A stretch of 64,000 nucleotides of DNA from an uncultured Bacteroidales bacterium (GTDB lineage Bacteria > Bacteroidota > Bacteroidia > Bacteroidales > UBA3663). The DNA lies in assembly GCA_905235375.1 (NCBI GenBank), contig CAJOLH010000040.1, positions 9,028 to 73,027 of the forward strand, written 5' to 3'. Of the stretch, positions 3,141 to 60,050 are shown in pieces. Position 1 is the first letter of the stretch, and every line of letters starts with the position of its first letter. The translations under genes were made by a program, and so were the position numbers. The notes under the pieces were generated by a model that ran no database searches, had not been told where the DNA came from, and worked only from the letters and a program-made list of their open reading frames with translations.

Positions 3141-4481
3141 ATGAGTAAATGGAAGGTTATTCTGCTTGCTATAACAATGGTTTTGGCAGGCAGTGAACAG
3201 AACTATGCACAGGATCAGCGGACGCTCGATTCTCTGCAGACACGTATTGCTACGCTTGAGAAGCGCACCGAGCGTGTAGAGAACTTTCATCGCCGTTTCA
3301 CGGTGGGAGGCTATGGCGAGGCCGTGATGAGTCGTATGTTCTACAGCGACAATTATAAACGTTACACGAATGCCGACCTTTACAAGGACGATGACGGCTT
3401 CGGACAGTTCGACCTACCTCATGTGGTAATCTATATGGGTTACGATTTCGGAAATGGCTGGACCATGGGCACGGAAATTGAATTCGAGCATGGTGGTGCC
3501 GAGACAGCCGTGGAGATTGAAGAAGAAGAGACCGGCGAATATGAGACGGAAACCGAACGTGGTGGCGAAGTCGCCTTGGAACAATTCTGGTTGCAAAAGA
3601 GTTGGGGCAAAGGCTTGAACTTAAGAATGGGACACATCATTGTTCCCATCGGCGGTACCAACCAGCATCACATGCCCAATGAGTTCTTCACAGTCTATCG
3701 TCCTGAGGGAGAAAACACCATCCTGCCTTGTACGTGGCACCAGACGGGCATCAGCCTTTGGGGACGCGTGAAGGATTGGCGTTATGAGATGCAGTTCCTT
3801 CCAAGCCTTGAGGCTGACCTCTTTGGCGCAAAGAACTGGGTGCATGGTGGCAGTGCCAGCCCTTACGAATTTGACATAGCCAATGGTTATGCAGGAGTGC
3901 TTCGCGTGGACAATTACAGTATTCCTGGCTTGCGCATCGGCGTGAGCGGCTATTACGGCAAGTGTGGTATCAATTCGCTGAAGGATTACAAGTACCGCGA
4001 TGCGGGTGCTGACGGAAACCTCGTGATCGGTGCCTTGGATTTCCATTATGACCGCTATCATTGGGTAGTACGTGGCAATTTCGACTACGGACACCTTTCG
4101 GATTCGGAGGCCATCACACGTCTGAACAAGACGCTTGGCAACAATTCGGTATCTCCCCAGACCTCAGTGGCCAGCGATGCCATTGCAGCAGGCGTGGAAG
4201 CCGGATATGATGTTTTGTCGCAAGTTGTAAAGGCACGTGAGGCAGGGCAGAAACTATACGTCTTTGGACGCTATGACTATTACGACTCGATGCTAAAGAC
4301 CGAGGGCAGTGTGGTGGACAATCCCTGCTGGAGCCGGCAGAAGTTCACTGTGGGCTTGAACTATCATCCTATTGACGAGATTGTCATAAAGGGCGAGTAT
4401 TCCTATCGGCTCTTCAAAAGCCAGTTCAACGACGAGCCTACACTCAGCCTGGGTATATGCTACAGTGGATTCTTCCGTTGA
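3141..4481 (+). CDS. Outer-membrane beta-barrel porin (phosphate-selective porin O/P-like)
   Basis: Signal peptide MSKWKVILLAITMVLAGSEQNYAQ, then an N-terminal coiled coil (LDSLQTRIATLEKRTERVE) and alternating aromatic/Gly beta-strand patterns ending ...GICYSGFFR. The TTG at 3123 in the track is probably not the start. Confidence 0.6.
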   Translation: MSKWKVILLAITMVLAGSEQNYAQDQRTLDSLQTRIATLEKRTERVENFHRRFTVGGYGEAVMSRMFYSDNYKRYTNADLYKDDDGFGQFDLPHVVIYMGYDFGNGWTMGTEIEFEHGGAETAVEIEEEETGEYETETERGGEVALEQFWLQKSWGKGLNLRMGHIIVPIGGTNQHHMPNEFFTVYRPEGENTILPCTWHQTGISLWGRVKDWRYEMQFLPSLEADLFGAKNWVHGGSASPYEFDIANGYAGVLRVDNYSIPGLRIGVSGYYGKCGINSLKDYKYRDAGADGNLVIGALDFHYDRYHWVVRGNFDYGHLSDSEAITRLNKTLGNNSVSPQTSVASDAIAAGVEAGYDVLSQVVKAREAGQKLYVFGRYDYYDSMLKTEGSVVDNPCWSRQKFTVGLNYHPIDEIVIKGEYSYRLFKSQFNDEPTLSLGICYSGFFR

Positions 4482-4536: not shown

Positions 4537-5697
4537 ATGAAGAAAAACTTTAAGTATGCATTAATGGCTATTGCCGCCATTTGCGTGAGTGGAAGCATGG
4601 TAAGTTGTGATGACGATGATGACAACGGCTCGGCCAATGAGGTTGACAAGACTCAGCAGGCTATCATCTCGAACTATGTAAACGAAATTGTAATCCCAAC
4701 CTATAAGAGTCTGGCCGACCACGCTATTGCTTTGGCTGAAGACTGCGAGGACCTTTCGACACAGGCAAAAGTGGATAAGGCTTGTGCAGATTGGGTGGAG
4801 GCTCGTAAGTACTGGGAGCGTTCAGAAGCCTTCCTCTTCGGAGCTGCTGCCGACTATAATATTGACCCACATATCGATTCATGGCCACTCGATCTTACTC
4901 AACTTGCCGAAGTGCTTGCTGCTGGCAACATTGAATCGCGCATCGACGCAGGCACCGCAGGTTATGGTCTGTTGGGCTTCCATGCCATCGAGTATGTCCT
5001 TTTCCTTGAGGGCTCGAAAGGTGATGCTTCGAAGCGCAACCAGCCTTTGGAAAACATAACGGAGGCCATGGCATCGTTTGCTGCTGCGGTAGCCAGTGAC
5101 ATGCGTGACCAGTGCGTCCTGCTTGAAGCTGCCTGGGCAGGCATCGATCATGTTACAGCCGCCAAACGCGCTATTTTGGACGATGCCGAACTCGACCCTT
5201 CGTTCAACTATGGTGAACTGTTGACCAATGCAGGTCTTTCGGGCAACACCAAGTACAAGACACAGGCTGCAGCCTTCGAGGAGATCATCGTCGGCGCTTC
5301 GGACATTGCTAACGAGGTAGGTAACACCAAGATTTCCGACCCTATGGATTCGCATCAGTGGAGTGACGTGGAGTCGCCTCATTCGTGGAACTCGGTGACT
5401 GACTTTGTTGATAACATCGTTTCGGTACGCAACGCTTATCTGGGCACTCTTGACGGTTCACGTTCAAATGTTTCAGTTTCGGCACACGTGGCTTCGAAGA
5501 ACAACAGCATCGATGCCGATGTACAGGCCAAGATCAGTGCCGCTATTGCTGCATTGGAAGCCCTGCCACGTCCTTTCCGCAACTACATCTACGTGGATAC
5601 TGATGCTGCCTCGAAGGCAAAGATCCAGGCCGCGGTAGATGCCTGCAATGACCTGGTAGATGCTCTCGATGCCGCACAAGAGGCAGTAAATGACTAA
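4537..5697 (+). CDS. Imelysin-family (peptidase M75 / IrpA-like) lipoprotein
   Basis: Lipobox ...SGSMVSC followed by a D-rich linker. GxHxxE-type motif GFHAIEYVLF. Two-domain helical pattern typical of imelysin-like proteins. A DUF1111 gene is adjacent. Confidence 0.8.
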   Translation: MKKNFKYALMAIAAICVSGSMVSCDDDDDNGSANEVDKTQQAIISNYVNEIVIPTYKSLADHAIALAEDCEDLSTQAKVDKACADWVEARKYWERSEAFLFGAAADYNIDPHIDSWPLDLTQLAEVLAAGNIESRIDAGTAGYGLLGFHAIEYVLFLEGSKGDASKRNQPLENITEAMASFAAAVASDMRDQCVLLEAAWAGIDHVTAAKRAILDDAELDPSFNYGELLTNAGLSGNTKYKTQAAAFEEIIVGASDIANEVGNTKISDPMDSHQWSDVESPHSWNSVTDFVDNIVSVRNAYLGTLDGSRSNVSVSAHVASKNNSIDADVQAKISAAIAALEALPRPFRNYIYVDTDAASKAKIQAAVDACNDLVDALDAAQEAVND

Positions 5698-5714
5698 TCT
5701 AATCTTAACCTATT

Positions 5715-7418
5715 ATGAGAAAATTTATTCTGGTCTTGGGCGTCGCACTCTTTGCTGTGTCATTCACGGCATGTAGCGATGATGACGACAACAACGATAA
5801 TAATGGCGGCAGCATCGTCGATGATGAGTCGGTGAAAGAACAATACTATTCGGGCGGAAAACTTGGTACTGCATTTATCAGTACATCGAAAGCATTCGAG
5901 CAGCCTACGCCCGCTGTAGAGAATAGTGGCATGTTCCTTGCCTTCAATCGCGGTGAGAAGATGTTCGAGGAGATGTTTACCGCCAACACCAATGGAGGTG
6001 AACGTGAGGGCCTCGGCCCCCTCTACGTGCGTTCGTCGTGCATCCATTGCCATCCTGGTTATGGGCATGGCAAGACTCAGCCCGATGGATCATTCAACAC
6101 CGTAGATGTCGGCAATGGTTACCTGCTTGTGGTCTATAATCCCGATAACAATGCGTATGTGTCGTGGCTTGCAGGTATGCCGCAGAGCCATGCCATTGCG
6201 CCCTTCAAGGATCCGCTCGACGAAACCAAGATTACCATAAAGTGGGTAGGTTATACCGACGAGTGGGGCAATAAATTCCCTGATGGAGAGTCTTACAGCC
6301 TCGTCTATCCTGAGGTTACTCTGCCACGTGAAGCCGTCTATGTGATCAACCGAGGTTATGAGGATGCCACCACAACCAATTACGAGGTGCGTCTTGAGAA
6401 CACTATCGGTATCTATGGCACAGGCATTACCGATGCTATTCCCGATGACTCGATTACTGCACAATGGAAGCGCGAAGAGGCAGCATATCAGGCCGGCTAC
6501 TTGAAGCATTGGAATAGTGCGTGGTTCGAGAATGGCGAGTGGAAGAGTTTTTATTCGAATGCTCGCCAAGGCGACGGAACTAAGTATGTGCGTCGCTATA
6601 CGTACGCCATGTCACGTGGTCCTATTCTCGACGCAGCTGGTGCAAATGCCATCTGGAACATCACCAATGTGACACGTTCGGATCGCAGGTACCACTATCT
6701 GGACCTTAACGGTAAGATCTACGCCACCTGTGCTTCGCAGGATCCTGAGGTTCAAGCCGGCTTTGCCGACTATATCAGCAAGATTTCGAGTGCCGAGGAG
6801 CATCCCGAATGGTTCACCGATAATGTGGAGGCAAACATCTACAACTACCTCACATCGACAAACTTGCCTGTGGAAATGTCGGATGATGACTACATTAACT
6901 TCATGGTCTGGCATCGTGGTTTGGCTGTGCCTGCTGCCCGCAACATCGACAACGTCACTGTCCAGCAAGGCAAGAAACTCTTTGAGCAGATTGGCTGTGC
7001 ACAATGCCATCGACCGAGTTGGACCACTGGTTCGGACAACGTGCGAGACCCCAATAACTTCAAAGTTGTTGATTCGAAGAGCGCTAACTATGGCAAGATG
7101 CTCACCGAACTGATGCCACGCTATCCGAACCAGAAAATATGGCCCTACTCGGACTTTGTGCAGCACAAACTGATGATGAAGAACGACATCCGCACAGGAT
7201 GGTGCCGAACTACACCCCTTTGGGGACGTGGACTGCATCAGATATGCACTGGTGCGGCCACGTCGGACCGTCTGCATGATGGACGAGCGCGCAACGTGAT
7301 CGAGTCGATCATGTGGCATGGCTCAGCCGAGTCAGATGCGCGTGCCTCGGTCGAAAAGTTCCGTTCTCTTACAAAGGAGGAGCGAGACGCTGTGGTTCAA
7401 TTTATCGATGCAATTTAA
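5715..7418 (+). CDS. DUF1111-family di-heme protein (putative cytochrome c peroxidase-like / 'thiol oxidoreductase')
   Basis: Lipoprotein signal ...SFTAC plus a D/N linker. Two CxxCH motifs: CIHCH (6039-6053) and CAQCH (6996-7010). Typical partner of imelysin genes. Confidence 0.8.
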   Translation: MRKFILVLGVALFAVSFTACSDDDDNNDNNGGSIVDDESVKEQYYSGGKLGTAFISTSKAFEQPTPAVENSGMFLAFNRGEKMFEEMFTANTNGGEREGLGPLYVRSSCIHCHPGYGHGKTQPDGSFNTVDVGNGYLLVVYNPDNNAYVSWLAGMPQSHAIAPFKDPLDETKITIKWVGYTDEWGNKFPDGESYSLVYPEVTLPREAVYVINRGYEDATTTNYEVRLENTIGIYGTGITDAIPDDSITAQWKREEAAYQAGYLKHWNSAWFENGEWKSFYSNARQGDGTKYVRRYTYAMSRGPILDAAGANAIWNITNVTRSDRRYHYLDLNGKIYATCASQDPEVQAGFADYISKISSAEEHPEWFTDNVEANIYNYLTSTNLPVEMSDDDYINFMVWHRGLAVPAARNIDNVTVQQGKKLFEQIGCAQCHRPSWTTGSDNVRDPNNFKVVDSKSANYGKMLTELMPRYPNQKIWPYSDFVQHKLMMKNDIRTGWCRTTPLWGRGLHQICTGAATSDRLHDGRARNVIESIMWHGSAESDARASVEKFRSLTKEERDAVVQFIDAI

Positions 7419-9529: not shown

Positions 9530-9569
9530 AATTAACAATTAACAAATAATAATTAACAATTATAATATT
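9530..9569. repeat. AT-rich heptamer array (AATTGTT family, read on the minus strand)
   Basis: attaacaattaacaaataataattaacaattataatattg lies directly after the ccsBA stop. Confidence 0.8.
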
Positions 9570-16590: not shown

Positions 16591-16630
16591 ATTAATTAAC
16601 AAATAACAATTAACAAATAACAATTAATAA
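16591..16630. repeat. AT-rich heptamer array filling the GH130-symporter spacer
   Basis: The sense (minus) strand reads AATTATT AATTGTT ATTTGTT AATTGTT ATTTGTT AATTAAT, ending 5 nt before the symporter ATG. Confidence 0.8.
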
Positions 16631-17857
16631 TTATTGCTGGTTTAGGAAGGCGAGGTTGCGGTCGATGAGACGGTTGCGCGTCTTGACGCTATCGCCAGTG
16701 GTGAACTTGTCGCTTGGCGTGTTCATGCAGTAATCGACAAGCTGGCCGATGGTTGAAGTGGCTACGTGCAGGCGTGTGTCGGACGAAGCATAATAGATAA
16801 ATACCTTGTCATCCGTTTGGTGCATGTCGGCTCCTGTGCCGCCATCAGCAATCCAACCATTTGCAAAGAGAACGTTCATGACATCGCCGATATACTCCTC
16901 ATCCTTGGGCACCATAAATGCACCGCCGGGTTGAGCAATGACACGAGTGGGATCGTCGAGCGCGGTCATATACATATATAATACGTAGCGCAAGCCTGAG
17001 GCGCAACCGCGTACGCCATGAGCCAGATGAAGCCAACCCTTTGGAGTCTTGAAGGGATGAGGACCTTCCCCATTCTTCACTTCCATGATGGTGTGGTAAT
17101 GACGGGCATTGATGATCTTCTCTTCCTTCACTTCGGCATGTGTGATGTCATCGATGAGTGCCCAACCGATGCCGCCACCCGAACCAGCGTCGATGAATCC
17201 GTCCTGCGGACGTGTGTATAGGGCATACTTACCATCGACAAACTCAGGATGCAGCACGACGTTGCGCTGCTGGGAATTGGAGCGCAGGTCGGGCAGACGC
17301 TCCCAGTTCACAAGGTCTTTGGTGCGGGCAATGCCGCAGGTGGCGGTGGCTGCGCTGAGGTCGCCTGGCTGACTGTCGTCGTGACGCTCTACGCAGAAGA
17401 GGCCGTAGATCCAGCCGTCCTCATGCCGGGTGAGACGCATATCATAGACGTTGGTGGCTGGAGCGTCGAGACCGGGCAGACAGCTCCCTTCGGGAGCCTC
17501 CGGCAGGGTGATGGGATGATTCCAGAAGCGGAAGTTGTCGATACCGTTGGGTGATTCGGCTACGGCGAAGAACGACTTGCGGTCATCGCCTTCGACACGC
17601 ACCACCACGACGTACTTGTCGCCCCACTTGATGGCACCGGCATTGAAGGTGGCATTGACACCGATGCGCTCCATGAAGAATGGATTGGTCTCGGGGTTGT
17701 AATCGTAGCGCCAAAGAAGTGGTGCATGAGCAGCTGTGACAATGGGGTATTCATAGCGATTGATGATGCCATTGCCCTCGATGGGGGTGTTCCTGCGGCT
17801 TATGAGGGCTTCGTATTGTGCCTCGATCAAGGCCTTGCGTTCTTCGAAGTTCATCAT
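16631..17857 (-). CDS. GH130 4-O-beta-D-mannosyl-D-glucose (beta-mannoside) phosphorylase
   Basis: 408 aa starting [40 protein letters not shown]..., with the GH130 five-bladed propeller pattern. Gene context matches the Bacteroides fragilis mannan operon. ATGATGA overlap with the upstream gene. Confidence 0.88.
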
Positions 17858-35059: not shown

Positions 35060-35545
35060 CCAATTTACGATAGTGAATTGGACTCGCACTTTCGGCGCAT
35101 ACCCTTTCTTGGCCAGGATTGGTTATGCTCCCGCAGAAGAATAACCATTTTCAGCCAAGACTGGTCATGCCTCGAACAGATAAAGCACTCTGATGCGCGA
35201 CAGGATGCTTGCTCAGTTCGGAGAATGACCTTTTTCGGCCAGGATTGGTCATGCTGCTATCGGATGAGTCCATTTTACGATAGTGAATTGGACTCGCACT
35301 TTCGGCGCATACCCTTTCTTAGCCAGGATTGGTCATGCTGCTATCGGACGAGTCCATTTTACGTTCGTAAATTGGACTCGCACTTTCGGCGCATACCCTT
35401 TCTTGGTCAGGATTGGTTATGCTCCCGCAGAAGAATGACCATTTTCAGCCAAGATTGGTCATGCCTCGAACAGATGAAGCACTCTGATGCGCGACAGGAT
35501 GCTTTATCCGATTGCGGTATGACCAATCTTGGCCAAAAAAGGGTA
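35060..35545. repeat. Composite nested repeat array: two units of about 150 bp, one partial unit, six direct copies and one inverted copy of a 28-bp ACCnTTTynnRGCCARGAyTGGTyATGC module
   Basis: Units at 35060-35210 and 35353-35504 differ by about 8 mismatches in my manual alignment. Module copies start at 35101, 35144, 35228, 35311, 35395 and 35438, with an inverted copy at 35517-35544. Confidence 0.85.
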
Positions 35546-43002: not shown

Positions 43003-43030
43003 AATTATCAATTATCAATTATCAATGGTC
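43003..43030. repeat. Heptamer array (AATTATC x3 plus AATGGTC) filling the SusC-SusD spacer
   Basis: The sense (minus) strand reads ...GATAATTGATAATTGATAATT and abuts the SusD ATG. Confidence 0.85.
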
Positions 43031-43032
43031 AA

Positions 43033-46000
43033 TTAAAACTTGATACTTGCACCAACCAGGTATGTACGTGACGGTGGGTAAAGACCCAGGTCGATTCCAG
43101 AAGCCCATCCTTCGGCACCTGCGGCATTGCCTACCTCAGGGTCGAGGCCAGTATAGCCGGTGAATGTATAGAGGTTCTGAGCCTGAACGTAGAAGCGGAG
43201 CTGCTGCAATGGGCAGGACTTCCAGATCTTCTTGAAGTCGTAACCGAATGTAACGGTCTTGATCTTGAAGTAGTCGGCATCCTCCATGTAGCGGGTAGAA
43301 ACATAGTTGGTATTGGGGTGACCAGTACCCGAGATACGTGGAACGTCGTTCGAGGTGCCTTCACCATGCCAACGATCAAAGATCGTGGTATCGTAGTTGT
43401 GCCACCAGGAATCACTGTAAGAACGGTAAGAACGCATGATCTGCATACCAAATGCACCTGCACCGTTGACAGCGAAATCGAAGCCCTTCCAAGAACATCC
43501 GAGGTTGATACCCAGGGTTACATCGGGGTTAGGATTACCAATCTCATGACGGTCGGTAAGGTCGCCTTCAGCGTAGGTAATCACACCATCACCATTCCAG
43601 TCGTCCCAGATGCAGTCACCAGGCTGTGCGCCATCGAGCACGGCCTTGCCAGCTGCTTTTGCAGCATCAATCTCGGCCTGGTTCTGCCAGATACCACTGT
43701 AAGACATGCCGAAGAAGTAGCCAATGGGCTTGCCCTCCTGGGCACGGTAGATATACTCTGTACCCTGTGAGAGGATACTGGGACTACCATTGATATAGCC
43801 ATTTTCGTTGGCAATACGTGTAACCTCGTTCTTATTGGTAGCAAGGTTCACACCGATGTTGTAATGGAAGTCCTTGCCAACCTGGTCGTTCCAGGTGAGA
43901 GCAATTTCCACACCCTTGTTCTCAACGTCACCGCCATTGATGTAAGCAGGGTTGGTACCCTCGATGGCAATACGCGGGGCAACAATAAGCCAGTCCTTGG
44001 TGGTCTTCTTATACCAGTCGAAGTTCAAGCCCAAACGGCTGTCGAGGAAACGTGCATCGAAACCGAAGTCAAGCTGCTCGGAAGTCTCCCATGTTACATC
44101 AGGATTAGGCACGATGTTAGCGTAAGCACCGACATTGGGCTTGCCGGTCAAAGTGAAGTCCATGCTGTCGCTGAACTTATAGCCGCTATCACCTGCACTG
44201 CCCGACTGGGCAATGGTAGCCAGATACTGGTACTTGGCAATACGGTTGTTACCGTTCTGGCCCCAGGAAGCACGGATCTTGAAGAAGTCGAGCCAGCTGC
44301 TGGTGCTCTCCATGAACGACTCATTGGAAACTACCCAACCGGCAGATACAGAGGGGAAGGAGCCCCAACGATTACCCTCGGAGAAGATGCTCGAACCGTC
44401 GTAACGCATGGTAAAGGTGGCCATATAGGTTTCTTTCCAGTCCCAAGTCACACGACCGAACCAGGATGCCAGATACTCATCGTCATTGGGGTAGCCATCA
44501 AGAGAAGCATTGCTGAGGTCGGTGCTGAAATTGCGCAGCCATGCCGAATTCCAATCCTTGAGAGTAGCATACTGCGACCCCTCATTAACATTGTTGGAAC
44601 CACTGAGGTTGGTACTCCAGCCAGAGCTCTGGAAAGTCTGACCGACCATCGCGCTGATCTTATGACCACTGATAATAGGAAGGTCGTAGGTAAGCGTATT
44701 CTCAATGGAGTAGTTGGTGCTCAACCAAGTGCTCTGGCTGACACTATATGTTGAAACAGTGCCTGAACCAGAAGAGGGAGAACGTGGCTCTCCGAAGCTG
44801 CGATAGGCACCAGAGCTCCAGTTGAAGTTGAACTGACTGCGGAATCTCAGGCCCTTGATAGGCTGGATAACCAAGAAAGCAGTAGCACTGGTGTTGATGT
44901 TGCGGCTTTCGGCCATGGAGTTGAAGCCACCCTTTGAGAGACCCTCGTAGGGATTGTTGAACCAATAGTCGTTCCACTTGGTGCCAGGAATAGGATTACC
45001 GGCCTCGTCATACAGTTCACCATAATTAACATGGTTATAAAGCTCACCATTGTCATCATAAATAGGTACGAGCGGGTTCGTCTGGAGCAGACTGTGGATA
45101 TAGCTCCAGTACATGCCGTCCTCAGCCAGGTCGTGGTTCTTGTTGTAGCCGATAGAGATGTTCTCACCGATGGTGATGGCATCGAAGTCCTTCACTTTCA
45201 GAAGCACGTGATCGCTGTTGATGCGGATAGTATGGCGCTTGTAGTAAGATGCCTGATCAGCACCCATGATGCCTTCATTGCCGGTATAGGTATAGGACAA
45301 TGCAAACTTTGAACGATCGGAACCACCGGTCATGGTCACAGAATGATTCTGCTGCAAGGCATTGTCGTTCTCGAATTCACCCCACCAGTCAGTGCCTTCC
45401 CAACCGTTGGCAACACGATTAAGAATGTACTGCGGAACATAATCCGAGAAGTTGACCTTCTGGCCAGAAGTGTTAAAGCTGTACTCATCCATAATGGTCA
45501 GATACTGCTGGGCATTCAGCATCTGTGGGCGCTTGTAAACGTTAGACCAGCCGAAGACACCGTTGTAGCTGAGCTCAATCTTTCCAGCCTTGCCCTGCTT
45601 CGTGGTTACGAGGATCACACCGTTGGCAGCACGAGAACCGTAGATGGCTGCAGAGGCAGCGTCCTTCAGCACGTCGATCGACTCGATATCGTTCGGGTTG
45701 ATGCCGTCGAGGTTGCCGCCAGCCACACCGTCGATTACATACAGAGGCTGAGAGTCACCGATGGTGCCGACACCACGGATGAAAACCTTGTAGCCCTTGC
45801 CAGGCTGCGACGACGACTGGGTGATCTGCACACCGGGAGTGCTCGACTGCATGGCTTCGAGTGCGTTGGTGGTGTTCAGCTTGGAGATGTCATCACCCTT
45901 AACCTGAACGGTGGCACCTGTCACCAGCTTCTTCTTCATGGTACCGTAACCGATGACAACCACATCCTCGAGTGACTGACTGTCCTCGTGAAGGGTGATG

Positions 46001-51817: not shown

Positions 51818-51887
51818 AATTATTAATTGTTAATTATTAATTGTTAATTGATAATTGTTAATTGTTAATTCTTAATTGTTAATTGAT
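51818..51887 (+). repeat. Ten tandem heptamers (AATTATT/AATTGTT/AATTGAT/AATTCTT) ending 4 nt before a start codon
   Basis: Read directly: AATTATTAATTGTTAATTATTAATTGTTAATTGATAATTGTTAATTGTTAATTCTTAATTGTTAATTGAT. Confidence 0.9.
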
Positions 51888-53488: not shown

Positions 53489-54448
53489 TTATAGCGCGAT
53501 GAAGCAGGGGAGGAGGCAGAGCGCCGCCCCGACGGCAACGATGAGGAGGATCCACCATTCGATGATTGCCGACCGAAGGTTGGCTTGCCGGAACGTGAGC
53601 TGCAGGGCGAGCATGGTGGCAAGCATCGGAAGGTGGGTGGACAGATGCGTGGCATCGAGCGCGAACAGCGTCAGCAGGACGAGGCTGAGCACCGAGACGA
53701 GGGCGATGGAGGCTTCAGCCCGCACGGTTTGCCCCACGTCGATGGCAAGCCCCAGCATGGCATAGATCAACAGCAGCAGTGCGACGTAGGCCAAGTAGGC
53801 CGTGCACCACGTGCCAAGCCTTGGCAGGACGGGGATCGGGAAGAGACGGAGGTAGGCAGCCAACATTCCATCGGCCGCCCCGATGCCACTGCCAAAGAAG
53901 TACGCCAGATAGACAGCCCAGATGCCCAGCACAATGCCCGTGAAGGTGCTCATCAGGTTGCGCATACTGGCGCAGCGCATATAGTAGCTGGCGATGGGTT
54001 GCAGCACCACCCACAGCAGGACATGCGGGTTGAGCGTGGACGTGAGGCCGATGATGAGTCCGAGCAGCAGGTGCTTGATGATGGCCACTCGGCGCTGCCA
54101 CAGGCTCGTCTGGAGCGACAGCAGGGCAAGCAGCGCGAGCATTTGGACAATGGCCCACACGACCTTGTCGCCACTGTAGCAGGCGGGGATGTGGCAGACG
54201 GCGAAGCTGAGCGACGAGGTGAGCAGCGGCCAGGCGATGGCGAATGCCTTGACACTGGCTCCTCCATCGGGACGGATGCGTGCCACGATGTGGCGTATGC
54301 CTGCCGAAAGCACGCCCGCTGTGACCCATAAGCTGCACAGCACTTTGGGCGGCGCGGCTCCCAGCAGGGCGAGCGCTGCAACAAGTCCCGCGCTCAGCAG
54401 GATGAGCACGAGGGTGGCGTGGCGATATTGGGTCAGGGGAGAGTACAA
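53489..54448 (-). CDS. Polytopic inner-membrane protein, unknown function
   Basis: About 319 aa of mostly hydrophobic helices. The start is uncertain (TTG in the track, with no nearby ATG). Confidence 0.5.
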   Translation of the reverse strand: MYSPLTQYRHATLVLILLSAGLVAALALLGAAPPKVLCSLWVTAGVLSAGIRHIVARIRPDGGASVKAFAIAWPLLTSSLSFAVCHIPACYSGDKVVWAIVQMLALLALLSLQTSLWQRRVAIIKHLLLGLIIGLTSTLNPHVLLWVVLQPIASYYMRCASMRNLMSTFTGIVLGIWAVYLAYFFGSGIGAADGMLAAYLRLFPIPVLPRLGTWCTAYLAYVALLLLIYAMLGLAIDVGQTVRAEASIALVSVLSLVLLTLFALDATHLSTHLPMLATMLALQLTFRQANLRSAIIEWWILLIVAVGAALCLLPCFIAL

Positions 54449-54450
54449 GA

Positions 54451-54703
54451 GGGTTTGAGGGGTTTGAGGGTTTGAGGGGGGTGAAGGGTTTGAAAGGTTC
54501 GAAGAGTTTGAGGGGTTTGAGGGGGGTGAAGGGTTTGAGGTGTTTGAGGAGTTTGAGGAGTTTGAGGGGTTGCTCCTGTTGGTCGCGTCCGAGGGAAGCG
54601 AGGAGTTTAAGGGGTTTGAGGGGTTTGAGGGCCACCTTTCAAACCTTCGAACCTTTCAAACCTTTCAAACCCTCAAACCTTTCGAACCTTTCAAACCTTT
54701 CAA
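54451..54703. repeat. 9-bp minisatellite (GGTTTGAGG family): about 16 units in one orientation, then about 8 inverted units (CCTTTCAAA), forming a large imperfect palindrome
   Basis: Left block 54451-54569, unique 32 bp, three more units 54602-54630, centre GCCAC, then the inverted block 54636-54703. Confidence 0.9.
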
Positions 54704-54725
54704 CTCCTCCAGCAATAAGCTGGAA

Positions 54726-56072
54726 TCAGTCCCACGCGGCGAGATCGTTGCCGATGTCGTGGCGGTAATATTTGCCTTCGAACTGGATAAGCTCGGCTCC
54801 TCGCATCGACTGGGCGAGGGCGGCGGCAAGGTCAGTGCCATAGGAGGTGACGGCAATGACGCGTCCGCCAGCGGTAACGATGTCACCTGCGTCGTTGCGC
54901 GCCGTGCCGGCATGGAAGAGGATAGCGTGGCGTGCGGAGTCGGCGGGAGCCACGGTGCCCTGGGTGAAGAGCTCGTTGTCGAGCCCCGTCATCACCTTGC
55001 CCTTGGCGTAAGAGCCCGGATAGCCGCCGCTGACGAGCATTACGGTGACGGCAGCACGCGGATCGACTTGGAGCGTCTTCTGGTCGAGGTTGCCGTCGGC
55101 TACGCCTTCGAGCAGCGTCACCAGGTCGCTCTGGATGCGCGGCATGACGACTTCCGTCTCAGGATCGCCCATGCGGACATTGTATTCGATGACCATGGGG
55201 TCGCCGGCATGATACTGCTGGATGTCGCGGTCGATGCGGATGAGGCCGAGGAAGATGAAGCCCTGATAGCGGAGGCCTTCCTGCTGGAGACCTTCGATGG
55301 TGGGGCGAACGATGCGCTCTTCCACCTTCTGCATGAACTCGTCGTCGGCAAACGGTACGGGCGAGCAGTTGCCCATGCCACCGGTGTTGGGTCCGGTGTC
55401 GCCTTCACCGATGCGCTTGTAGTCCTTGGCAACGGGCAGGATCTTGTAGTGCTTGCCGTCGGTGAGCACGAAGACCGAACATTCGATGCCCGACAGGAAC
55501 TCCTCGATGACCACGGTGGCCGATGCTGCTCCGAACATACCGTTGAGCATCTCGCGGAGCTCGCGACGGGCTTCGTCGAGGGTGGGCAGGATGAGTACGC
55601 CCTTGCCTGCAGCCAGTCCGTCGGCCTTGAGCACGTAGGGCGCCTGGAGCTGTTCGAGGAAGCGGCAGGCCTCGTCGTACTGCTGGGCGTTGAACGAGCG
55701 ATAGCGGGCGGTGGGAATCTGATGACGGCTCATGAAGCCCTTGGCAAAATCCTTCGACCCTTCGAGCTGGGCAGCGGCCTTGCTGGGACCGATGACGCGG
55801 ATGCTTGCCAATCGCGGGTCGCCCTTGATGTAGTCGTAGATGCCATTCACCAGTGGGTCTTCGGGGCCTACAACGACCATGCCGATGTGGTGCTGAAGGC
55901 AGAAGTCGCCGATGCGATCGAATTCGCCCACTTTGATGGGGACGTTCTTTCCGTAGGCGCTTGTGCCTGCGTTGCCAGGGGCAATGTATAGTTGTTCACA
56001 CTTGGGGCTTTGTGCCAGTTTCCAAGCGATGGCGCATTCGCGGCCGCCACTGCCGAGGAGGAGGATGTTCAT
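54726..56072 (-). CDS. purD: Phosphoribosylamine-glycine ligase
   Basis: [23 protein letters not shown]...YIAPGNAGT... with an ATP-grasp pattern throughout. Confidence 0.95.
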
Positions 56073-58192
56073 AGATGTTCGTCGAAATAGCGTGAAATAT
56101 TATTTAATAGGTGTACCCGGTCCTTGCCGCGCACGTTGTGCTCGTGGCCGATATACATCAGGAAGTCGGGATAGGTGCCGGCTGCGACCGCGTTCTTGAG
56201 GAACTGCATCGAGATCTGGGGCACGACGGTGCCGTCCTGGTCGTCGTGGATGATGAGCAGGTGCCCGCGTAGCTTGTCGGCTTGGTCGATAAGTGTGTTG
56301 GCGGCATAGCCTTCGGGGTTGCTGTCGGGTGTGCCCATGTAGCGCTCGCCGTACATCACCTCGTAACGGCTCCAGTCGAGCACGGGGCCGCCGCATACGC
56401 CCACCTTGAACGTGTCGGGATAGTTGAGCATCATGTAGGTGGTCATGAAGCCGCCATAGCTCCATCCGTAGATGCCGATGCGTTCGGTATCGACGTAGGG
56501 CAGCGTCTTGAGATAGGCGACGCCTTGCATCTGGTCGAGGGCTTCAACTTCGCCAAGATGATGCCAGATGGCCTGTTCGAAGGCGAGTCCACGGTTGTCG
56601 GAACCACGTCCGTCGATGGTGAAGACCACGTAGCCGCGATTGGCCATGTAGCAGTCCCAGCCGGGCAGTCCCCACTGGAACCCGTCGGTGACGAGCTGCG
56701 CGTGAGGCCCATTGTAGAGATAGACGATGGTGGGGTAGCGCCGATCGGGATGCTTGTCGTAGTCGCGTGGCTTGACGAGGCGATAATAGAGGTCGGTCAC
56801 CCCGTCGGCAGCCTTGAGTGTGCCAAGTTCCACTTCGGGACGTGCCAGGGTGGGGTGGCTGTCGTTCGAGAGATAAGGATTGACGGCTGTGTAGAGCACT
56901 TCGGTCGCAGTGGGGCGGCCATTCTTGAGGCTGATCAGTTGGCAGGTGCGGGGCGTCGAGTGGTTGGTGTAGGTGTCATAGACCTGTGTAAATTGTTCGT
57001 TTACCTTGATGCTATGACGGCCTTCGGCCTGGGTGATGCGATTTACCTTCAAACCCTTCAAACCCTTCAAACCTTTCAAACCCCTCAAACCTTTCAAACC
57101 CCTCAAACTGCTCGTTATCTCTACCGCGTACAGGTTGCTTTCGAGCGGACTGTCGGCAGCTGCCATGAAGTAAAGGAACTTGCCGGCAGGGTCGATTCCG
57201 ACAATGGAGGTGATGTCGTACTTACCTTGGGTCAGCGGCAGACAGACCGCTTTTTCGTCGGCGATGTTGTAAAGGTAAGCCTGCATGAAGCCATCGCGTT
57301 CGCTGAGCCAGACGAAACGGTCGTTCGAGCCTGGCATAAAGCAGGCGGGATGCTTGGGCTCGACATAGCGGTCGGAACTTTCGGTGAAGAGCGTGCGCAC
57401 GAAGTCGCCTGTCTGGACGTCATAGACGTTCATCTCCATGTGGTTCTGCTCACGGTTGAGTTCGGCAATGAGGATCTGACGGCAGTCGGGATGCCAGGTG
57501 ATGCAGGTCAGGTAATGGTCGGACTGCGGTTTGGTCTTGATCCAAACGGTCTGCTTGTTGTCGGGATTGTAGATGCCCAAGGTGACCTGATGGCTCGTCA
57601 TGCCCGCCATCGGATAGCGTATCCATTTGACCTCGGCTTCCTGCGGGTCGGTCTGGAGCAAAGGATACTGACCCACCATCGACTGGTCCATCCGATAGAA
57701 TGCCAGCAGGTGACCCTTGGGACTCCAGAAGATGCCGCCGTCGATGCCAAACTCATTGCGATGGACTGCTTGTCCCCAGACGATGGGTGATTGCCCCTGG
57801 TCGGGTGAGTCGCTGTCGGTGTTGGGGTCGCTGACTTGTAGGCGAAGGGGTGTCGCGCTCTCCGAAAGCTGCTCCACCCAAAGGCGGTCGCCTTCGCAAA
57901 GGGCAGTCCATTGCTTGTCCGCACTGGGTTCGCCTTTCAGCGTCGGGCGCTGAGGTGTAGCATTGGCGGCATCTTCGGGCAGAACATAATGGAACTTCCC
58001 TTGTTCGTCGAAATGGGTGTTGAGGAGCGAGGGCGCATAGATGTAGTCAGGATGGCCTGGCGTCAGCTGAGCCATCGTGGGCAGTTCGCCTTCGCTTTGA
58101 GGGATTGTGCTCAGGATGGTTTGCGCCGATACGGAGACAGTCATTGATGTTGCCAAAAGGAGGGTGAGAAGAGCTTTGGTCCTTGTTTTCAT
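56069..58192 (-). CDS. S9-family dipeptidyl peptidase IV-like serine peptidase, carrying an in-frame (GLK/GLR)n insertion
   Basis: Signal peptide, N-terminal beta-propeller, and a C-terminal alpha/beta hydrolase with GIYGWSYGG (Ser nucleophile) and ...IHDDQDGTV...GHEH. 4-nt overlap with purD. Confidence 0.88.
57047..57109. repeat. Seven tandem 9-bp units (CCTTCAAAC x3, CTTTCAAAC, CCCTCAAAC, CTTTCAAAC, CCCTCAAAC) inside the peptidase CDS
   Basis: Encodes [21 protein letters not shown] on the minus strand. It is the same unit family as 54451-54703. Confidence 0.9.
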
Positions 58193-58194
58193 TA

Positions 58195-58225
58195 TCGGAG
58201 TGATCGGGGATGTCGGAGTGATCGG
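58195..58225. repeat. 13-bp direct repeat TCGGAGTGATCGG (58195-58207 and 58213-58225) immediately upstream of the peptidase ATG
   Basis: Read directly in the 44-bp spacer. It contains ATCGGA cores like the 18973-19020 array. Confidence 0.8.
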
Positions 58226-58236
58226 AAGTCACTGAC

Positions 58237-60050
58237 TTATTTGTCGTCAGGCTTTTTTGTCAAGTCGAGGACGGCTTTGCTCATGTCGAAATTTTCGCCG
58301 AACATCGGGCGGTTGGGGTCGTAGGTGCGACGTCCACGGGGCTGATGCTCGCCGCCGCGTTCTTCGAGCTTGCCATCGGCGCCTCGCTTGAAGTTGCCTC
58401 GGCTCACCGAGATGCTGCCGTCCTTGCCAATGGTGTAGGTCCTTTCGGTGCCGCTGTCCTTGCGGGGGCGTTTGGGCTTGTCGCTGGCAGCAGGCTTGTG
58501 CCCACGCTCGTAGGCTTTGCCGTCCTTGTCGAAGAAGCGCTTCTTCTTGTCGTCGCTGTCGGCTTTTCCCTCCCGTTTTCCGTCTTTCTTGAATGGCTTG
58601 TCGTCTTTCTTGAAGGTTTTGCCATCTTTCTTGAACGGCTTGTCATCCTTCTTGAACGGCTTGTCCCCCTTTTTATCGGAAGCTCCTTTCTTCCCGAAGT
58701 CCTTGCGCACGCGATCGAAGCGGGAGTTGTCCTGCTTCTGGTCGGCGCTCTGCTTGTCGAGTTCGCCCCCCTCCTGGCGGAAGTCGTCATACTTGCCGCT
58801 GAAGAGTTCGTACTTGCGGAGCTGGCAGGGTATGCCTCCGTTGTTGAGGTCGATCTTGAGCGAAGGCTTGAGACCGATGAAGTCGAAGGGCGTGCCTTCC
58901 TTGCGGTGACCTGTGCGTGGGTCGGTATAGGAGAAGGTGGCGTTGGGGTCGTCGCTTGAGATGATCCATGCCTCGGAGCCGTGGAAGTTCTTCTTCAGTA
59001 CGCTTGCCACCATGCGGTAGAAGGTGGGTACGTCGGTGAAGAGACGCTTGCCATAGGGAGGATTCATCACGACGATGCCGCCTTGGGGCTGTTCGCCTTC
59101 TGCCAATGCTTCGGCATCGGCTTTGGCCCAGGGTGCAGCATCGACCTGAAATCCTTCACCGAAAGGGAGATGTATTTGTGCAGGCCTGCCTTTCGGACGT
59201 TCTCGGTGGTGACATCGATGGCAATCTTGGAGATGTCGGAGCCGTAGATGTGATGCAGAAATTCCTTCTCCTGCGAATCGTCATCGTAGAGCTCCTGCCA
59301 AAGCTCGTCATCGTAGGCCAGTTCGCCCACTGTCCAGCGTTGGAATCCGAAGCCCTTGCGATAGAGTCCTGCGGGCGTATTGGTGGCGATGAGTGCTGCC
59401 TCGATGAGGAAGGTTCCCGAGCCGCACATCGGGTCGTAGAGGTCGCGTGTGCCGTCGTAGCCAGCCTTGAGGAGTATGCCTGCGGCCAGCACCTCGCTGA
59501 TGGGAGCGTCGGTGTGCTGCTCCTTGTAACCGCGTTTGTAGAGCGGGTCGCCGCTTGAGTCGAGGCTGAGGGTACATTCCGAACCCGTGACGTCGGGGTC
59601 TGTCGTGTCGGAGATGTGCAGATTGAGCTGCACATCGGCCGAACCCACAGCCACTTTCGGGCGTTTCATGCCATGCTCGGTGAAGTAGTCGCAGATGGCA
59701 TCCTTGGCGCGATAGATGGCGAAGCGTGAATTGCGGAAGTTCTCGGAGTAGATGGTGTTGTCGATGGCGATGGTCTGACCTTGGGCCACGTATTGGCTCC
59801 AGTCGATGGCCTTCACCTTGGCGTAGAGGTCGTCGGGGTCGGTGGCAGTGAACTGCTCGAAGGGCTTCAGCACACGCAGTGCGGTGCGGAGCCAGAGGTT
59901 CGACTTGTAGAGGAGCTGCTTGTCGCCCAGGTAGCTTACCATGCGGTTGCCGATGGTGATGTTTTCGCCACCTAATTGTTCGATTTCCTTGGCCAGAATC
60001 TCTTCGAGGCCGGCGAGGGTTTTTGCAATAATCTTGAACTTGGTTGTCAT
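58237..60050 (-). pseudogene. THUMP-domain class I SAM-dependent RNA methyltransferase (RlmL/UPF0020-like) with a Lys-rich C-terminal tail, split by a frameshift
   Basis: ORF 59067-60050 carries the THUMP domain and motif I (DPMCGSGTFLIEA) and is good up to ...ISLSVKDF. ORF 58237-59106, in another frame, carries motif IV (VVMNPPYG). The frames meet near 59145-59152, and one missing nucleotide would join them. Confidence 0.8.
58582..58665. repeat. Four tandem 21-bp units encoding DKPFKKD-type heptads in the methyltransferase tail
   Basis: gtctttcttgaatggcttgtc / gtctttcttgaaggttttgcc / atctttcttgaacggcttgtc / atccttcttgaacggcttgtc. Confidence 0.85.

Follow-up and report, generated by a model that had tools for sequence, protein, structure and literature searches.

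A short-unit mosaic repeat family of rumen Bacteroidales and its in-frame array in a prolyl-tripeptidyl-peptidase-like enzyme

In a stretch of 64,000 nucleotides from an uncultured Bacteroidales bacterium (GTDB lineage UBA3663; assembly GCA_905235375.1, contig CAJOLH010000040.1, positions 9,028 to 73,027 of the forward strand), hereafter the window, the gene of an S9B serine peptidase contains a 63-bp array of 9-bp units. This array is probably a fragment from a dispersed family of mosaic repeats, one that was fixed in frame in a hairpin of the propeller domain, that has exchanged sequence with a copy downstream of the neighboring gene purD, and that is most likely carried as a tolerated passenger. 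Under this explanation, only stop-free 9-bp units would survive inside the peptidase, and gain or loss of units by replication slippage or unequal exchange would change the loop in steps of three residues without breaking the enzyme, while sequence would pass between the loop copy and the purD-downstream element 2.4 kb away. The resulting (Gly-Leu/Ser-Lys/Arg)n peptide would most likely be a tolerated, disordered surface passenger rather than a functional module, and the same process would have brought in-frame copies of the family into at least five other proteins, where they lie in linkers, tails and hairpin turns.

The coding array and its host peptidase

The array lies on the minus strand at 57047-57109 and consists of seven 9-bp units (in order, AGTTTGAGG, GGTTTGAAA, GGTTTGAGG, GGTTTGAAA and three copies of GGTTTGAAG), which form codons 362-382 (21 residues) of the open reading frame (ORF) at 56069-58192. 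It is preceded in the protein, on the N-terminal side, by ...NLYAVEITS; all unit spacings are exactly 9 bp, and the ORF is open across all units. Seven in-frame units had been read at this place in an initial annotation of the DNA, which is borne out by the codon positions and by Tandem Repeats Finder, which reported a period-9 repeat of 7.0 copies at 57046-57108 (87% matches, 0% indels, score 98). The array can thus be described as a coding minisatellite, with head-to-tail units, a unit length that is a multiple of three and an intact ORF. When the window was searched with the two-unit pattern GTTTGARGGGTTTGARGG (up to 3 mismatches), 25 matches were found against 0.22 expected, all of them confined to two loci, namely the peptidase array and an intergenic array at 54451-54703; the latter contains units in both orientations, as had also been claimed.

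The host gene (56069-58192, minus strand), which overlaps purD by 4 bp, encodes a prolyl-tripeptidyl-peptidase-like S9B serine peptidase of 707 amino acids, with the domain architecture of this family, a DPPIV_N beta-propeller (Pfam, 1.3e-61) followed by a Peptidase_S9 hydrolase domain (6.4e-47); its N-terminus, judged by inspection, looks like a signal peptide. The best sequence matches in PDB were a Bacteroides ovatus protein (4q1v, 2e-171) and the prolyl tripeptidyl aminopeptidase of Porphyromonas gingivalis (2d5l/2eep, 4e-168), and a Foldseek search with an AlphaFold2 model again placed the P. gingivalis enzyme (2eep/2d5l) on top, with template modeling (TM) scores of 0.79-0.85 and 42% identity. 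Judged by sequence and predicted fold, the nearest characterized enzyme is therefore prolyl tripeptidyl peptidase at 42% identity, so that the earlier label "DPP4-like" holds at the level of the family but does not name the closest enzyme. An alignment of 73 sequences shows no variation at G576, W577, S578, G580, G581, D653 and H685, which include Ser578 of the GWSYGG motif, Asp653 and His685; the enzyme looks functional because the catalytic Ser, Asp and His are unchanged among all of these sequences.

In the AlphaFold2 model (mean predicted local distance difference test score, pLDDT, 89.8; predicted TM score 0.90), residues 361-380 form a loop with a pLDDT of about 55 between strands 352-358 and 383-385, both of which are above 95. 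The order of strands in this model would place the array in the next-to-last blade of the propeller, in the hairpin that joins its third strand to its fourth. Loops were compared in a 120-sequence alignment and in a neighbor-joining tree calculated with the loop masked. Orthologs of up to 65% identity have a tight 4-residue turn at this site (VDLK-TKK-VTR), and the closest relatives of the window peptidase have GLK/GSK repeats in the loop; alleles with such GxK arrays form essentially one clade in the tree. The suggestion that the repeat was inserted into a short surface turn is accordingly supported both by the tight turn of the distant orthologs and by the low-pLDDT loop of the model.

The number of units differs between relatives. 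Within the 90%-identity cluster represented by protein P0002, loop lengths of 6, 12, 15, 18, 21, 24 and 27 residues were found, always a multiple of 3, with examples such as PRGSKV (one unit), PRGSKGLKGSKV (three units) and PRGSKGLKSSKGSKGSKGSKV (six units), and other clusters have 4, 5 or 6 units. The loop had been proposed to be potentially length-variable, which is thus confirmed among the relatives of a single cluster (6-27 residues in steps of 3). The window allele, with seven units, is the longest core-less allele seen, and its relatives span the range from one unit to four units plus a 36-bp block containing the core described below. When metagenomes were scanned with the right flank of the loop, which is conserved, a single locus was recovered, L029, with a 5-unit allele at 87% DNA identity; the scan yielded no same-species alleles of the window. 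Differences in length among all alleles of the peptidase are multiples of 9 bp and keep the frame, and the locus is not phase-variable in the on/off sense because a 9-bp unit never shifts the frame.

Two further properties of the array point to a filter acting on DNA of non-coding origin. The coding arrays of eight peptidase alleles have 28 unit spacings, every one of them 9 bp, and the length of the core block is also a multiple of 9; the intergenic arrays of the same loci have spacings of 10 bp (47 times), 9 bp (38 times) and 8 bp (8 times). The stop-containing unit GGTTAAGAGG, which is abundant in the family, is absent from all peptidase alleles. In the window array, every Leu codon is TTG, every Gly codon is GGT and both Arg codons are AGG, and these codons make up 6%, 8% and 3% of the Leu, Gly and Arg codons in four neighboring genes, respectively. 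The pattern of spacings and stop-containing units would be a signature of selection for frame, and the rare codons a signature of a non-coding origin of the array. The coding array is not palindromic, and no fold is predicted for it (0 kcal/mol, z about +1); only the intergenic copies form hairpins.

A dispersed family of units and cores

The family is built of G-rich units of 8-10 bp (GGTTTGARG, GGTTCGARG, GGTTAAGAGG and GGTTCTGAAG, i.e., of the GGTTNGARG type) around a near-invariant 32-bp core, TTGCTCCYGTTGGTCGCGTCCRAGGGAAGCGA. In the window, the sole core copy (TTGCTCCTGTTGGTCGCGTCCGAGGGAAGCGA, 54570-54601, plus strand) lies in the middle of the intergenic array. One genome per species was scanned for 20 bases of the core, with the pattern GTTGGTCGCGTCCNAGGGAAG; the 17 matches are spread over 16 stretches from seven metagenome-assembled genomes (MAGs) of rumen Bacteroidales, on at most four contigs per MAG. 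A relaxed search for the 32-bp core over all retrieved sequences, with variation tolerated at six positions, found 24 full cores, of which 22 were in MAG stretches (five beyond the GTTGGTCGCGTCCNAGGGAAG matches) and two in locus L001, and L024, L025 and the window have one further core copy each, differing at a tolerated position. At the 12 positions outside the search pattern, too, the core copies hardly differ from one another, and every one of them is bordered on both sides by units of the same orientation (GGTTTGARG, GGTTCGARG, GGTTAAGAGG or GGTTCTGAAG). Additional core-less arrays occur within the same 8-kb loci. The family is both dispersed and multi-copy. A second core, CGCGAGCAGAGCTCGGAGCGA, which is absent from the window, was found at six related loci, and the family therefore has at least two alternative cores. 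In some copies, two tandem cores lie one or two units apart (L008, 2700-2800; L014, 2262-2316; L019, 1579-1655), which makes the core a repeatable module. Folded alone, the core is no more stable than shuffled sequences on either strand (z about -0.5), so that structure does not explain its conservation.

The strongest link between the coding array and this family is the presence of the core in the same peptidase loop of relatives. The loop of L001 (protein P0002, 89% identical to the window peptidase) reads GGTTCGAAG GGTTTGAAG GGTTGCTCCCGTTGGTCGCGTCCAAGGGAAGCGAAA GGTTTGAAA GGTTCGAAG, i.e., two units, a 36-bp non-repeat block and two units, and the loops of L001 and L012 are in frame with units and core to give GSKGLKG-CSRWSRPREA-KGLKGSK. 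The array downstream of purD in L001 also holds the core TTGCTCCYGTTGGTCGCGTCCRAGGGAAGCGA, and the core was found inside the peptidase loop of P0131 and P0134 as well. The initial annotation had proposed that an intergenic repeat family has colonized coding sequence here, and the 32-bp core lying in frame in the same loop of L001 and L012 confirms that both arrays belong to one family.

The peptidase is not the only gene concerned, as core-bearing in-frame copies were found in five further Pfam-supported, unrelated genes. These encode a BcrAD_BadFG/DUF2229 activase with the element between its domains (L009/L013), a hybrid two-component sensor with two tandem cores in the linker from HATPase_c to the receiver domain (L019), a mannose-1-phosphate guanylyltransferase with the element inside the NTP_transferase domain (L023), a NusG-like protein with the element in its N-terminal tail (L015), and a DUF6261 protein with the element in its C-terminal tail (L010/L020). 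Between them, the copies are read in three frames, which give GLK...CSRWSRPREA, SNPS...LPSDATNGSNPS and LKPL...ASLGRDQREQPL. Most guanylyltransferase orthologs (345-346 amino acids) have a 5-6-residue turn at the element site; among the closest relatives, L023 has units together with the core and P0142 (95% identical) has units alone, which means that the pattern seen in the peptidase recurs at an independent gene.

The intergenic member in the window (54449-54725) fills the whole 277 bp from the stop codon of purD to the next start codon. Read on the minus strand, in the direction of transcription, it consists of a small hairpin, about eight G-rich TTGAAAGGT-type units (54634-54703 on the plus strand) and about 17 C-rich inverted units, which lie at 54451-54631 on the plus strand and enclose the core. 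As RNA, it is predicted to form a long hairpin (-102 kcal/mol, z = -9.5 against shuffles). Intergenic copies in general follow the same order, from a stop codon through G-rich units and inverted C-rich units to the next start codon, and form long hairpins. A search of Rfam with 54300-54850 gave only sub-threshold matches to hairpins like those of miRNA precursors (33 bits, where the gathering score is 297), which can be attributed to the long hairpin. ARAGORN detected no tRNA or tmRNA in the window, and the GGTTCGAA units have at most a presumed likeness to tRNA T-arms. A consensus scan of the intergenic element for promoters and terminators found none. Long, spurious-looking ORFs run through the intergenic array (53715-54635 on the minus strand and 54540-55991 on the plus strand) and would encode peptides of the (LKP)n or (FEG)n type.

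The element is flanked by purD (phosphoribosylglycinamide synthetase; 54726-56072, minus strand; Pfam GARS_N, GARS_A and GARS_C), which lies between the two repeat loci, and by a hypothetical gene (53489-54448, minus strand) that has a hydrophobic N-terminus and no Pfam match, and whose start codon abuts the last repeat unit. The N-terminus of the latter, LYSPLTQYRHATLVLILLSAGLV, is conserved in L001, L002, L004, L006 and L007. The site downstream of purD is occupied by the element in the window, L001, L024, L025 and L026 and by a different element in L006 and L007; L002 and L004 have 107 bp and 25 bp of unrelated sequence there, respectively. The spacer between the peptidase gene and purD contains the element in L004 and L024-L026 (100, 135, 174 and 194 bp), heptamer repeats in L002 and no element in the window. 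At the element junction, the purD product of the window ends in ...AAWD*, and that of relatives with an empty site is two residues longer (...AAWDKQ* or ...AAWDAC*). In two other loci, the stop codon of the upstream gene lies inside the first repeat unit (L017, about 5100-5200, TAA in GGTTAAGAAGG; L014, about 2320-2340, TGA in ATGAGGGGTT). Elements can therefore supply gene termini, and purD of the window likewise ends early.

A five-unit array of GGGTTTGAGG, flanked by the direct repeat GGTCTGCCATTGCGA and without the core, was observed in a viral contig (L030, IMGVR_UViG_2582581301_000002, 5620-5730), demonstrating that unit arrays exist beyond the core-bearing MAGs. The core itself was absent from the viral contigs searched and the L030 array has different flanks, and no evidence for a phage origin was obtained. 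The family is apparently undescribed; a literature string search for the core and for unit dimers returned no mention, and a keyword search returned nothing relevant.

Origin of the loop array and alternative explanations

Evidence for exchange between the loop and the neighboring intergenic copy comes from variants private to the two loci. The core variant CCAAGGGAAG (A for G) is found in four of the 24 cores, namely the peptidase-loop copies of L001 and L012 and the purD-downstream copies of L001 and L008, and nowhere else. In L006 and L007, the loop contains a different, 21-bp duplication (ITHNPSS/ITHNLSP), and the loop motif TAACCCATAA of L006 recurs in its own purD-downstream element (6 matches against 0.59 expected). 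From the shared private core variant and the shared unit variant in the L006/L007 lineage, we infer that loop and adjacent element have exchanged sequence non-reciprocally, by gene conversion or local copying; this exchange may have run in either direction. It had also been suggested that recombination between the two loci could invert or delete purD together with part of the peptidase gene. This was rejected as unsupported, given that the peptidase gene, purD and the next gene have the same order and orientation in every one of the eight relatives with contigs long enough to show it, and that the longest identical runs between the two arrays of the window are only 18 bp (direct) and 16 bp (inverted). 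Identities of this length are short for efficient homologous recombination, going by the requirements of RecA in Escherichia coli.

Other origins of the array were considered. That it is an artefact of assembly or sequencing is extremely improbable: short tandem repeats can be mis-assembled and nothing more specific points this way, but typical reads are longer than the 63-bp array, the reading frame remains open and conserved on both sides of it, and more than 20 independent assemblies have homologous arrays at the same codon position. It is very unlikely that the units arose by local replication slippage of native turn codons (such as an ancestral RGSK) and resemble the intergenic units through convergence or mutational bias. 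The minimal allele PRGSKV, almost of the ancestral turn length, and the extended basic loops already present in mid-distance orthologs would fit such an origin; it is contradicted by the non-repetitive 32-bp core in the same loop of L001, L012, P0131 and P0134 (four independent assemblies), by the variant that the loop core has in common only with the neighboring intergenic copy, and by the recurrence of units, with or without the core, at the unrelated guanylyltransferase hairpin. Direct transposition of an active, non-autonomous element like a MITE (miniature inverted-repeat transposable element), which could have come from anywhere in the genome instead of from the purD-downstream copy, is unlikely but deserves more weight than slippage. 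The multi-copy distribution with near-identical cores in diverged genomes, suggestive of recent spread, and the insertions in many unrelated genes are in its favor, whereas the private A variant ties the loop copy to the adjacent intergenic copy, and filled and empty sites compared with each other, as far as the diverged empty alleles allow, revealed neither terminal inverted repeats nor target duplications.

A different question is whether the loop does something for the enzyme. It might be a selected module, a tunable Lys/Arg-rich segment acting in substrate access, envelope or surface binding, oligomerization, or recognition by phages or predators, with its length under diversifying selection. 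Such a role is improbable, somewhat more so than direct transposition, even though an array or an extended basic loop is kept throughout a clade of about 66-90% identity, Lys or Arg stands at every third position in all alleles, and apart from the loop the gene is intact, its catalytic triad being invariant. The unit sequence GGTTNGAAG by itself entails the Lys periodicity, and the array codons are the rarest in the locus. Elsewhere the element is read in three frames that give unrelated peptides (GLK..., SNPS... and LKPL...), some proteins that are near-identical apart from the loop have a single unit (PRGSKV), and the loop is predicted to be disordered.

Several observations also weigh against the explanation preferred here, i.e., a family member fixed in frame, exchanged with its neighbor and tolerated. 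Orthologs at 66-79% identity have non-repetitive Lys/Ala-rich segments that are about 5-12 residues longer than the turn, and no recognizable units were found in the loop DNA of the mid-distance orthologs L027 (74%) and L028 (70%); these loops could accordingly not be shown to be decayed arrays. Non-repetitive sequence comparable to the array is thus missing at this site from the distant orthologs, which have the tight turn, but is present in part at 66-79% identity. Since such extended loops are already found there, the site is, judging by these sequences, one that tolerated indels before the present array, and the turn may have lengthened before the repeat family arrived. The array may have come first, with the core added later by conversion, or the other way round. 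At the purD-downstream site, junctions of filled and empty alleles showed no terminal inverted repeats or target-site duplications, the empty alleles being too diverged for exact boundaries. No associated transposase, nor a gene like those of the transposases associated with repetitive extragenic palindromic (REP) sequences (RAYTs), turned up in the 8-kb flanks, where no search was aimed at one; this may also speak against direct transposition. Variation in copy number was seen among 90%-identity relatives, and the best database match to the window peptidase has 89-90% identity, with its own species absent. Finally, the neutrality of the loop is a matter of interpretation, and a Lys-rich loop kept across a whole clade could be useful.

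Neighboring repeats, related systems and implications

Other short repeats were observed around these loci. A second intergenic family with 7-bp units (AATTAAC, AATTGTT, AATTATC; 5-10 copies each) occurs in the window at 9530-9562, 16594-16633, 43003-43035 and 51818-51885, in the peptidase-purD spacer of L002 (12110-12143) and, beside the mosaic element, in L014. Directly upstream of the peptidase start codon, there is a 9-bp CGATCACTC-like repeat of 3.7 copies (58194-58226), and in L027 (a 74% relative) the intergenic region upstream of the peptidase (3605-4000) contains about 12 copies of a 13-bp unit, CATCCCAAACACT, and seven of an 8-bp unit, GAGAAAAT. The upstream RlmL/THUMP/UPF0020 methyltransferase gene of the window (58246-60041, minus strand) is split between two frames; residues 3-303 of the L002 ortholog align with frame -3 and its residues 285-588 with frame -2. 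This implies a frameshift near 59139-59199, and the gene is either a pseudogene or affected by an error of sequencing. A 21-bp tandem repeat of about four copies (58557-58665) lies in its Lys-rich C-terminal tail and is kept as a repeat in relatives (L001, 4971-5024; L002, 9528-9583). The strongest tandem repeat of the window is an 84-bp unit in 2.2 copies (35238-35423; 93% identical, score 323). The lineage seems generally rich in evolving arrays of short units.

The closest functional analogs of the rumen Bacteroidales repeat family are the Rickettsia palindromic elements (RPEs), selfish repeats that are inserted in frame in many protein-coding genes (PMC10969869). Both are dispersed and multi-copy, occur between genes as well as in frame in unrelated genes, and add peptides that fold and function seem to accommodate. 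The two are unrelated in sequence; RPEs are palindromes of about 100-150 bp that encode a conserved peptide in a Rickettsia host, whereas the coding copies of the rumen family are non-folding 9-bp arrays of one orientation, with or without a 32-bp core, variable in copy number and read in at least three frames. Within the order Bacteroidales, BrickBuilt of P. gingivalis is a MITE with an internal minisatellite, reported to be always intergenic (PMC4596501). It resembles the rumen family in being interspersed, multi-copy and lineage-restricted, with a short tandem unit of variable number combined with non-repeat modules, but it has a 23-nt unit between leader and tail subunits and small inverted-repeat ends (PMC4596501). 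The rumen family has units of 8-10 nt flanking a central core, no terminal inverted repeats that could be seen, and coding copies, and thus does not belong to BrickBuilt.

Pneumococcal BOX elements and the REP sequences and bacterial interspersed mosaic elements (BIMEs) of enterobacteria are likewise made of modular bricks with a variable number of internal modules, form hairpins and lie between gene ends. They differ in sequence, unit size and host, and in-frame coding copies are prominent in the rumen family. Coding variable-number tandem repeats and contingency loci of bacterial surface proteins share the feature that tandem copy number alters a protein between close relatives; the peptidase array differs in its 9-bp unit without on/off switching, in its host, which is a housekeeping-type peptidase and not an adhesin, and in its interspersed, non-coding origin.

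It is mainly in Rickettsia that the in-frame colonization of genes by such interspersed elements has been well documented. The present case extends the same phenomenon to free-living rumen Bacteroidales, in which a differently built element has kept intermediate alleles (1-7 units, with or without the core). This allele series provides natural material for understanding how selfish DNA becomes protein sequence and how far a propeller hairpin or a nucleotidyltransferase turn tolerates insertions. In practice, the arrays lend themselves to use as strain-typing markers and are a likely source of errors in the assembly and annotation of MAGs, as they can create spurious ORFs such as the one at 53715-54635. 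A broader and tentative idea, which we regard as possible but less likely than the opposite, is that rumen Bacteroidales harbor an undescribed class of currently active mosaic mobile elements, with minisatellite arms of 8-10-bp units and a 32-bp core about 99% identical across diverged genomes. In that case, the core could be the recognition site of a mobilizing enzyme, and the elements would seed new loops, linkers and tails of proteins in the manner of RPEs, with copy-number variability built in. If this were true, gut anaerobes would have a general route to new protein segments, with the peptidase loop as one visible example.

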